A stretch of DNA of 26,955 nucleotides from a virus (Duplodnaviria > Caudoviricetes). The translations under genes and the position numbers were made by a program. A model generated the notes under the pieces. That model was given only the letters and a program-made list of their open reading frames with translations, was not told the origin of the DNA and did no database searches. Within the stretch, counting starts at the first letter, position 1. Each line of letters opens with the position of its first letter. The stretch lies in the IMG/VR virus record IMGVR_UViG_3300044657_001121, positions 1-26,955 of that record; one strand, written 5' to 3'. Below, in pieces: positions 2,701 through 22,058 of the stretch.

Positions 2701-3026
2701 GAGCGGGACGGCTGCGCAACCTCGTCACGATAGAGCGCAAGACAAGCGCGCGTGATGACGACGGCGGCGAGCGTGTTACATGGGCAACGCTCGTGAGCGT
2801 GTGGGCAGCAATAGAACCGCTAAACGGCAAAGAGTTTTTAGGTAGCGAGCAAACGCAATCCGAGGTAACCGGGAAAATCGTCATGCGCTACCCGGTAGAC
2901 GTTAAGCCGCAAGACCGCATTACCTACGGCGGTAAGACTTACGCCGTGCATGCTTTGCTGCAAACGCGCCTTGACCGCCGTGAAGTGGTGGCGCTGGTTT
3001 CTGAGGGCGTACACGATGGCCGCTAG
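2697..3026 (+). CDS. Head closure / head-tail joining protein (SPP1 gp16-like)
   Basis: RAGRLRNLVTIE..W..VWAAIEPL.GKE motif; GTGA overlap with the connector gene. Confidence 0.9.
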   Translation: MRAGRLRNLVTIERKTSARDDDGGERVTWATLVSVWAAIEPLNGKEFLGSEQTQSEVTGKIVMRYPVDVKPQDRITYGGKTYAVHALLQTRLDRREVVALVSEGVHDGR

Positions 3027-20375: not shown

Positions 20376-20777
20376 CTACTCAAAAGCCAGACCGTGATAG
20401 CCTGCCAAATAAATGGCCGACTGCATTAAGCACATCGTTTCGATTCGGTCAGGTTTGTTGTCCCAATGCCGCAGCGCTTCTGCCAACGTGAACCAGCGGC
20501 AACCCGCGCCGATGTAGGCGACACCTTTTACGTTTGCGATGCACTTGCGATAACCGTCTGCAAAGCCAAGATCTAGCGCCCAAGATGCGTTAGCGCCGAT
20601 GCTTGCCCCTTCGCCGATGCTTGCCCATGCGCCGATGCTTGCCCCTTCGCCGATGCTTGCCCCTTCGCCGATTCTTGCCCATGCGCCTTCCGTAATCCAA
20701 CTCAACCCGGCAGGAGCAATAGACCAACCGTAAGAGTTTTTAGGCCAAAGTGCCGCAATATTTCCTGCTTCGATCAT
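20376..20777 (-). CDS. Hexapeptide-repeat (left-handed beta-helix-like) protein
   Basis: ASIGEG repeats; C-terminal IGAGCRWFT..EA..HW domain; AGGAG SD before ATG 20777. Confidence 0.75.
   Translation of the reverse strand: MIEAGNIAALWPKNSYGWSIAPAGLSWITEGAWARIGEGASIGEGASIGAWASIGEGASIGANASWALDLGFADGYRKCIANVKGVAYIGAGCRWFTLAEALRHWDNKPDRIETMCLMQSAIYLAGYHGLAFE
20594..20687. repeat. 18-bp tandem repeat x5 (CGCCGATGCTTGCCCCTT / ..CATG variants)
   Basis: Read directly; encodes the hexapeptide repeats. Confidence 0.95.
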
Positions 20778-20954
20778 TTCGACCACTCCTAATTGATTGA
20801 TTCGCTACTACCTACCGCCGCTTACTTCGCCGAACCCGAGGGCATAAGGCTTTTCGACACAGAGCGGATCGCTACTCCCTCACTCCCTTGTTACTGCGCC
20901 TTCGCTCTAAGGGACTCTGCTTGCGGTGCCTCGGTGTTTTGAGGCAGTAAGTAA

Positions 20955-20995
20955 ATGCTAGGGGATAACATTCCGCGTGTCAACACATTTCGTGC
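20955..20995 (-). promoter_or_regulatory. Leftward early sigma70 promoter (PL-like) with an 18-bp box
   Basis: Minus strand TTGACA(20983-20978)-17 bp-TAGCAT(20960-20955). Confidence 0.8.
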
Positions 20996-21040: not shown

Positions 21041-21069
21041 TTGACGTGCGAACAACAATCGTATACATT
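21041..21069 (+). promoter_or_regulatory. Sigma70 promoter driving the RNA cassette
   Basis: TTGACG-17 bp-TACATT; the predicted +1 falls at the base of the first hairpin. Confidence 0.75.
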
Positions 21070-21076
21070 ACGCGAA

Positions 21077-21158
21077 TTGCTGCGGACACAGCGAATAGTG
21101 AAGCCCTCAAGCTCATGCACATTGTGTCCGCAGTGTGCAGCAGCGCGAGGGCTTTTTT
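21077..21158 (+). ncRNA. C4/CI-like antisense RNA with its cognate target hairpin and a terminator tail
   Basis: Hairpin loop CGGACA (21083-88) exactly complements loop TGTCCG (21125-30); outer stem AAGCCCTC/GAGGGCTT with a T-tract. Confidence 0.7.
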
Positions 21159-21177
21159 ATTGCCCGTTCGCTGCGAA

Positions 21178-21580
21178 CTGATGACTAGATTATGGTCTTA
21201 GCTCCTTTGGGGTCATCGGTGTTACAGACGCCTACAAAGCACACAAGGGCGTCGCGGTGGGAGTGGATAGCAGCGACACATTAGAAATGCAAAGAACGAT
21301 ACCAGCGGCTTAAATGCGTCGTGGGGTAAGCCTGAAAAGAATCAGGAATCGGAAACGTAGCAAATGTGCCGTGATAGCTCGCCTAGAGCCGTGTGTGGGG
21401 ATCGATTAAATGGGTCTAAAGTCTAGGCAGGTGCGATGGAACATTATCGATAAGCGCACCCATTCAGAAAGCAACCGGAAACCTCAAATTACGCTGAATG
21501 ATTCCCTCAACCTACAGCTCATTGTGGGTTGGGGGAGTATTGAACCTAACCGCCCCGTTTCCTAAATCCGCTGTCATTGC
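21178..21580 (+). ncRNA. Putative large multi-branched structured RNA
   Basis: At least 7 local stems and 2 nested long-range helices; 17-bp hairpin with 4 G-U pairs; no ORF of 60 aa or more in the track. Confidence 0.6.
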
Positions 21581-21601
21581 TTAACTAGCACGGTAGAACA
21601 A

Positions 21602-21802
21602 ATGGATAGCCAATATCTTTGCAGGAAGTCAAAACCTAAAGTAGCGCATTTATGGAATGGGCGCGATACTGAGTGCAGGCAGCATTCGACGGGTGGGCTA
21701 AACCCGCGTAAATATGTCGTTTGGCGAAAGCTCCCTGAATTGCCAATATGCACAATGTGCGAAGCGGTGTGGCGTCGAAGCCAAGAAAAAAAGACCGCAT
21801 AG
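21602..21802 (+). CDS. 66-aa basic protein with a putative Zn-binding His/Cys/CxxC set
   Basis: AHLW....TEC...ICTMC; ends exactly at the right 18-bp box. Confidence 0.7.
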   Translation: MDSQYLCRKSKPKVAHLWNGRDTECRQHSTGGLNPRKYVVWRKLPELPICTMCEAVWRRSQEKKTA

Positions 21803-21842
21803 CACGAAATGTGTTGACATACGGCGTGTGGCGTGTTCCACT
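21802..21842 (+). promoter_or_regulatory. Rightward early promoter (PR-like) with an 18-bp box
   Basis: TTGACA(21814-19)-17 bp-TCCACT(21837-42) preceded by TGn; ATG 6 nt downstream. Confidence 0.65.
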
Positions 21843-21848
21843 ACGGAT

Positions 21849-22058
21849 ATGAAAAAGAAATCCCCTAAAGACTGTCTAGCGCAAGCCATTAAGGATGCGG
21901 GCGGTGCTGCGGCAATCGCAAAGCAATTTAAGTTCCCGTACACCAGCACGGTCTATAACTGGCAGTCGCGCGAAATCCCCGTCAAATGGGCGGTGAAGCT
22001 GTGCAAGATTAAAGGCGTGACCGTTACCCCTAACCAACTCAGGCCGGACGTATTTTGA
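21849..22058 (+). CDS. Cro-like HTH regulator (YdaS/Cro family)
   Basis: AI..AGG.AAIA...STVYNW...IP..LRPDVF signature; true start at ATG 21849. Confidence 0.88.
   Translation: MKKKSPKDCLAQAIKDAGGAAAIAKQFKFPYTSTVYNWQSREIPVKWAVKLCKIKGVTVTPNQLRPDVF

Follow-up and report, generated by a model that had tools for sequence, protein, structure and literature searches.

Can a phage decide with its own RNA how far transcription of an early cassette proceeds? This question is raised by a leader with two hairpins that lies between the two early promoters of a phage genome fragment and that the sequence-only reading had presented as a single-loop antisense switch of the C4/CI type. The comparisons reported here indicate that this leader is real, i.e. 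a conserved RNA element of a new family and not a chance observation. It is likely a switch with a sequence code, through which RNA of the phage itself controls whether transcription continues into a long non-coding RNA and the downstream genes. It does not belong to C4, CI or IsrK and most likely works like a one-piece P4-type attenuator with the mechanics of a riboswitch.

Phage fragment and cassette

The window, i.e. the whole stretch of 26,955 nucleotides that was analysed, is a 27-kb piece of a lambdoid tailed phage that carries tail and lysis genes, a leftward recombination operon and then rightward cro, initiator and helicase genes. Near-identical DNA is present in freshwater, estuary and wastewater runs. 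No integrase was found among the 45 ORFs scanned in the window, and head genes fall beyond the contig; the interval between the two early promoters of the window holds no cI, the contig not taking in the whole phage. A tRNA/tmRNA search found none, and the GC skew of the window tracks gene direction and is uninformative on the origin. A cassette of 806 nt, in which the leader is located, separates the two early promoters, which are included in a 28-nt inverted repeat. Apart from the leader, the following features are involved:

20968..20995, minus strand: left arm of the inverted repeat (28 nt), containing the -35 of the PL-like, leftward early promoter and forming the left border of the cassette
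21180..21601, plus strand: non-coding payload of 420 nt, near invariant in four relatives, with a pyrimidine/G-rich hairpin at its end (about 21495-21545)
21602..21802, plus strand: 66-aa ORF of a genuine, unannotated Cys/His-bearing family (308 clusters), relatives of which often stand behind a similar leader
21802..21829, plus strand: right arm of the inverted repeat (28 nt), containing the TTGACA of the PR-like, rightward promoter
21849..22058, plus strand: Cro/YdaS-like gene

The PL-like and PR-like promoters are thus one duplicated 28-nt inverted repeat. The core 17-mer of this promoter repeat was tried as a marker of the leader and rejected, since it occurs in 42 other viral contigs from unrelated phages that lack the leader. 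On the other side of the left arm, the leader of the leftward operon (20812-20960) is replaced by other hairpin-rich segments in the close relatives L175, L187 and L189, and the first leftward gene (20376-20786) includes an array of hexapeptide repeats (18-nt DNA repeats) that varies among contigs.

Organization and predicted folding of the leader

The leader consists of the following parts:

21041..21069, plus strand: leader promoter of sigma-70 type, TTGACG-17-TACATT; relatives keep hexamers and spacing but differ in spacer sequence
21077..21094, plus strand: hairpin 1, loop CGGACA at 21083-21088, extendable to 21080-21090, the target (a)
21095..21100, plus strand: variable linker, holding three of the six substitutions that separate the window from L187
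21101..21158, plus strand: long terminator hairpin (21101-21154) and U6 tract (21153-21158)
21123..21133, plus strand: antisense (a') at the tip of the terminator hairpin, TGTCCG being 21125-21130
21166..21176, plus strand: tail, a second complement of the 5' arm and loop of hairpin 1, transcribed only on read-through

The promoter-like element places the +1 near 21076 and ends 7 nt upstream of hairpin 1. As had been proposed, this hairpin starts at the predicted +1 and has a CGGACA loop. The second hairpin, with its TGTCCG tip and U6 tract, was also recovered, but not the 6-nt tip ascribed to it: the minimum free energy structure given by ViennaRNA closes T21125-G21130 and leaves 4 nt, a tip of 6 nt occurring only in the kissed state. 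This terminator carries the CT-CA-TGC / GCA-GY-AG internal loop of the family (21111-21117 / 21137-21143). The two loops are indeed exact complements, and their complementarity extends to 11 nt (21080-21090/21123-21133), the sole exact copy within the window. The statement that no second target exists proved half right: no same-sense copy was found in 600 nt (best match 6 of 11 nt), but a second complement, the tail at 21166-21176, had been overlooked.

The stretch 21076-21160 folds with a z-score of -5.5, which none of 200 shuffles reached. When both strands of the 27-kb window were scanned for any two hairpins whose loops are complementary, this pair alone was returned. However, a looser scan found at least 222 chance pairs in 1.03 Mb of other loci (125 loci), so that the two-hairpin pattern alone is not rare and the real proof is covariation.

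When the transcript of the window is folded by length, hairpin 1 forms first, followed by the a:a' helix (P = 1.0 for ends 21132-21148), and the terminator appears only from 21152, which agrees with the proposed competition between an alternative helix and the terminator. In-silico blocking of a restores the inner terminator stem to P = 1.0, and the tail helix is predicted from 21172 with the terminator intact. The polymerase covers the last transcribed bases at the U-tract and, for this reason, the a:a' helix would in this model still stand when the U-tract is reached.

Close relatives and module borders

A metagenome scan in which the stems were fixed and the loops left free returned 19 matches, namely four relatives (L175, L187, L189 and L192), 14 chance matches and one (L180) outside the pattern. 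One of the relatives, L175, has the same loops as the window. The three others carry CGGTCA/TGACCG, an A-U pair being swapped for U-A through changes in both loops (A21086T and T21127A); the second change is present in three of four runs. The swap-carrying relative is 95% identical to the window, and the 85-nt RNA differs from that of L187 by six substitutions and one deletion. The swap accounts for two of these substitutions, the linker for three and the +1 for one, and none affects a stem base. The swap of the L187 type is a single event, the chance of which was estimated by a simulation that used five substitutions (six being observed) at 0.006 over all positions and 0.05 over unpaired positions only. 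Compensatory loop changes, which had been named as a check, were thus found at close range (L187, L189 and L192), as they were at family distance (see below), and sequence comparison supports the view that the loop complement is under selection.

Other routes to relatives failed. The exact two-loop pattern gave no match in viral contigs, and the 48 viral matches of the stem-anchored, free-loop pattern are all chance ones (0–4 of 6 pairs). A BLAST search with the cassette among phage and plasmid records returned nothing useful, and loci found through Cro and helicase do not reach the leader.

The leader is not fixed in its cassette but is a swappable module, with a right border near 21175. In run X16, the same promoter is continued from 21072 by a different sequence, which can be read as a hairpin whose 6-nt loop differs too, and in run X7, another payload follows the leader after 21175, each border being a loose end of 30 nt only. 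Furthermore, payloads are shuffled relative to leader types across the family.

Between 21147 and 21830, the four relatives show 0–1 differences in about 680 nt, whereas their flanks have diverged by several percent or have been exchanged for other sequence. This invariance could result either from a recent sweep or from strong constraint on the 420-nt non-coding RNA. RNA runs (37–48% of words) were considered as a sign of a 400-nt transcript and rejected, the cover being patchy and including the flanks. As contigs from RNA libraries also span the flanks, DNA is a possible source of them, and no expression is claimed.

A wider family with covarying loops

Among 46 loci located upstream of relatives of the 66-aa ORF in viral contigs, 18 show the same layout by eye, five of them with two targets. 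To these eye-chosen members can be added an unbiased set, obtained by a search for the terminator-stem motif that did not require the kiss and from which the re-pairing figures cited for the kiss and the tail are drawn. This search gave 125 matches, of which 15 close the stem and 110 do not. A 7–11-nt complement of varying sequence between the 5' region and the inner terminator was found in all 15 stem-closing members, versus 8 of the 110 chance matches. For the 14 distinct members, the cognate pairing sum is 119 versus 72±5 on random re-pairing, and none of 20000 re-pairings reached it. A TAnnnT box stands just upstream in 12 of these 14 distinct members.

The window was excluded from an alignment of 17 relatives, from which a covariance model was built. 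In this alignment, 85.7% of the 119 cells of the kiss helix are paired, double changes occur at 5 of 7 pairs and the covariation is 0.52. None of 500 shuffles reached the number of paired cells, and none the covariation, and slid controls paired 26–45%; taken alone, pair counts and pair types were reached by 39 and 44 of the 500 shuffles. At family distance, double changes concern 26 of 119 cells in the kiss and 67 of 323 in the terminator stem. The kiss is therefore no more variable than the stem, and diversifying selection on the address is unsupported. All these members are related phages and not independent samples.

The window-free model matches the element of the window with 37 bits (E 5.5e-7), followed by the reverse strand of the same element (13 bits). 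It also gave four more candidates among 91 loci (L044, L016, L025 and L027), each with a 7–10-nt complement. Two further members, L394 and MW202484.1, were likewise found by the model or BLAST without asking for the kiss and have complements of 7–10 nt, seen by eye in MW202484.1; the latter is one GenBank phage carrying the leader. One place per record was found in 14 of 28 records, many of which are the training set, and in 4 of 50 others. Five of the six titled true matches to genome contigs belong to Betaproteobacteria bins, and this group is the likely host.

In most members, a' forms a single-stranded stretch of 7 nt within a three-way junction; the side hairpin is missing from the window, which represents the minimal form of the family. 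The CT-CA-TGC/GCA-GY-AG motif is built into the members found by pattern, but it also occurs in L197, L202, L204 and L229, found through the 66-aa ORF, and is lacking in L193 and L218.

Spacing and competing helices were compared in 30 members, a set that leaves out L211, L217 and L175 (whose loops are those of the window). Spacing is ruler-like: in 28 of 30, a' ends 18–25 nt before the U-tract and, likewise in 28 of 30, a ends 9–18 nt before the terminator base. Ten nucleotides before the U-tract, the nested a:a' helix is dominant in 17 members; in the 13 others, the switch would need a pseudoknot, which is beyond ViennaRNA scoring. In a 14x14 matrix, the cognate duplex is the strongest in every row, in some cases narrowly. 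One swapped pair changes the duplex from -22.7 to about -18 kcal, so that the single-pair difference between the alleles of the window and L187 is, as modelled, a weak barrier.

Right behind the U-tract, the tail provides a second, looser complement of hairpin 1, whose pairing is cognate-specific in the unbiased set (-187 versus -144±11 kcal, reached by 2 of 20000 permutations, versus 11953 of 20000 for a control stretch). A downstream same-sense target word of at least 6 nt in full was found, among the 30 members, only in L320.

Proposed mechanism and comparison with known systems

The reading that we favour, with a probability of roughly 45%, is that of a self-addressed attenuator, in which pairing in cis hinders closure of the terminator and finished RNAs block the loop in trans and restore termination. 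Promoter, hairpin 1, long terminator bearing a', U-tract and the tail complementary to hairpin 1 are conserved together. According to the predicted folding, a' would emerge about 20 nt before the U-tract and pair with a. Zipping of the 22-bp terminator would then consume the 9–18-nt linker and strain the kiss, or would have to break it, so that some polymerases would read through. Terminated RNAs would expose a' and could act as donors; in read-through RNAs, the tail would bury a and free a', which might make them donors as well. Donors would bind the loop of new transcripts before these have made their own a', leading to an allele-specific negative feedback, and the consequence could be an early burst, then a shut-off and the exclusion of phages sharing the same address. 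The gated product would be the non-coding RNA of 250–440 nt and the following gene, which for the window would mean the 66-aa ORF and perhaps also cro.

We infer the trans step and its negative sign by analogy with P4. According to excerpts of PMC4825925, the P4 immunity leader (seqA/CI RNA/seqC) exerts its control by premature termination, with a same-strand target (seqA) located upstream of the antisense in one leader. The leader described here has the same arrangement and is also located where a repressor would otherwise act. Unlike P4, it has no downstream copy of the target (seqC) and no kil/icd ORF, its antisense lies inside an intrinsic terminator and its tail is a second complement. 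It is by architecture, and not by sequence comparison, that it is set apart from CI.

An unlikely but serious alternative is an attenuator or folding timer acting in cis only, in which the kiss would set a fixed fraction of read-through or answer a protein or the speed of the polymerase, the short RNA being inert. The a:a' and a:tail pairings are all possible in cis, the kiss covaries as much as the stem does, and a precedent exists. Indeed, according to excerpts of PMC11611296, in the guanidine-IV riboswitch, whose 5' hairpin loop also kisses a loop on the terminator, the kiss interferes with the terminator; as the latter grows, the linker becomes shorter and the kiss comes under strain, a cis mechanism that requires no trans partner. 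However, the letters of the kiss covary in the leader, 5 of 7 pairs changing on both sides, and no conserved ligand site is found; the leader also occurs in a phage context, with phage genes and no exporter gene as neighbours. As these letters vary freely, unlike a ligand pocket, a sequence address is likelier than a ligand site. The other hairpin and 6-nt loop behind the same promoter in run X16 (30-nt loose end) also argue against a cis-only device. So does the tail: it is made after termination and the terminator stays folded, so that the tail could not alter termination, which calls for a role of the finished RNA.

A structural lock is rather improbable. In this reading, the kiss would persist beside the complete helix, which would be bent at the conserved CA/GY loop, and would serve to stabilise a small compact RNA, an oligomer or the payload's 5' domain. 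The CA/GY motif, otherwise invariant and present also in the members found through the 66-aa ORF, would suit such a lock, as would the fixed length of the helix, the accessibility of both loops in the terminated fold and, in one payload family at least, a structured RNA (double changes at 28 of 99 pairs). But pairing reaches 9–11 nt by opening stems in many members, beyond a loop-loop contact; the linker goes down to 9 nt against a 22-bp helix (a geometric estimate); leaders and payloads are freely shuffled; and the motif is missing from L193 and L218.

The favoured attenuator would act negatively in trans, whereas in Gifsy-1, according to excerpts of PMC4825925, IsrK raises read-through in trans, i.e. 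with the opposite, positive sign. There too, a terminated short RNA coexists with a read-through RNA whose 5' part pairs with a sequence behind the terminator, and binding of short IsrK to the downstream complement in the read-through RNA raises the latter about 8-fold. A similar positive switch, in which hairpin 1 of the short RNA would bind a' or the tail in trans and turn on read-through or payload folding, is improbable here, even though hairpin 1 has two complements, both downstream. The window has neither a coupled uORF nor an anti-repressor, while IsrK activates translation of a coupled uORF-antirepressor and the payload of the leader is non-coding; the leader has a further complement inside the terminator and no Rfam match. 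Moreover, the cis partner would outcompete the trans one, and a' would be open for only about 20 nt of synthesis.

That the leader is a diverged C4/CI member, processed by RNase P and with targets up- and downstream, is highly improbable: the target does lie upstream of the antisense on the same strand, a' is placed next to a side hairpin within a junction, leaders with two targets fill the same slot in L196, L216, L217, L224 and L227 (by eye) and an ant gene lies two genes behind L193, but no Rfam match appears even at E 10 on short stretches, and there is no second loop, no downstream target copy and an antisense within the terminator. No Rfam family, including the C4 (RF01695), c4-2 and IsrK models, matches the window or the leaders in 40 loci, and the initial assignment to the C4/CI-like RNAs is not supported. 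Like the C4 RNAs (P1/P7, RF01695; c4-2), which excerpts of PMC5320573 describe, the leader has a short variable loop with a possible target specificity, but it has one antisense stretch instead of a' plus b', does not match the three-stem cloverleaf and has its target away from a ribosome-binding site. Indeed, no credible gene start is found at the target, and the next family-supported ORF is 440 nt further on. An ant gene lies near one of the annotated loci. The two-target, C4-like leaders with a terminator found in the same slot of the five loci were missed by both Rfam and the covariance model.

The excerpts of the literature searched, including PMC2864571, PMC5737381 and bioRxiv 10.64898/2026.09.22.753630, hold no description of the leader family, and six supplementary files of PMC10690425 gave no match; the family may stand unnamed in the other files of the latter or in the supplement of PMC5737381.

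Payloads and neighbouring genes

Payloads across the family are non-coding, 250–440 nt long and belong to several unrelated sequence families. In one of them (five sequences), 28 of the 99 predicted pairs show double changes. Of 29 payloads, only 8 have an exceptional folding energy (z <= -2; 12 shuffles each); the payload of the window folds at z -2.4, on the plus strand only, and by eye, though not by BLAST, has short stretches in common with L224 and L327. In L193 and L196, the payload behind related leaders is the Betaproteobacteria-1 RNA (RF02932), which is absent from the window and covers only 120 nt of payload, not the leader; this provides a first context for this orphan Rfam motif. 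In L209, a Betaproteobacteria-1-like sequence stands directly behind a primase-like gene without a leader (by eye). The payload of L216, L217, L218, L237 and L239 (about 370 nt), often directly behind a primase gene, is an uncatalogued structured RNA with many invariant single-stranded words. An HDV ribozyme in the L197 payload was rejected (15 bits versus a cut-off of 44; no conserved catalytic layout by eye).

The 66-aa family displays conserved His/Cys and an STGG motif and is also found fused to HNH nucleases and a helicase. A word-index search found nothing and a full search gave the 308 clusters, Atlas matches being unnamed; no PHROG or Pfam corresponds to this family. Its sequence suggests that the protein is likely a small zinc-binding domain. 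As no U-run of at least 4 is found between the leader and 22053, read-through could reach the Cro/YdaS-like gene.

Neighbouring genes vary across loci and include primase, terminase, recombinase, RusA, head, HNH and RNase H genes and bare O-like domains. In L245 and L320, the cassette precedes replication proteins cut down to the O-like C-terminal domain (in L320, after a cro-like gene), and terminase, head, HNH or unknown genes lie behind other members. Given this variety, the unit looks position-independent. It may be the payload, rather than the next gene, that the leader doses.

A possible replicon and wider significance

By analogy with ColE1, the cassette could be a portable, protein-free copy counter and origin, whose same-strand antisense leader, with its loop as an incompatibility address, would dose a folded, G-rich primer RNA. 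Phage DNA replication would start with this primer from an R-loop, as in a ColE1-like replicon run from one strand; the cassette would then stand in for a repressor or for the DNA-binding half of the initiator. Some data hint at this: there is one copy per record at a free genome position, G-skew is positive in 29 of 29 payloads versus 69% of 157 ORF pieces, many payloads have a G-rich 3' hairpin, and the cassette stands behind primase genes (6 loci), before bare O-like C-terminal domains (2 loci) or before an RNase H gene (1 locus). However, terminase genes are found at 6 loci and the phage of the window has a full initiator and helicase, so that this proposal is doubtful at best.

If the self-addressed attenuator is confirmed, it would be a compact, one-piece, RNA-only self-control of phages that combines P4 immunity logic with kissing-loop riboswitch mechanics and fits target, antisense, terminator and reset element into about 100 nt. 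It would lead on to orthogonal RNA attenuators, and natural alleles, one pair apart between the window and L187 and many across the family, are ready cognate and non-cognate controls. The leader also marks the 5' end of several uncatalogued phage RNAs of 250–440 nt. Finally, an unrelated two-hairpin kissing pair with a U-tract is found in another phage (L122, about 2840-2909, minus strand).
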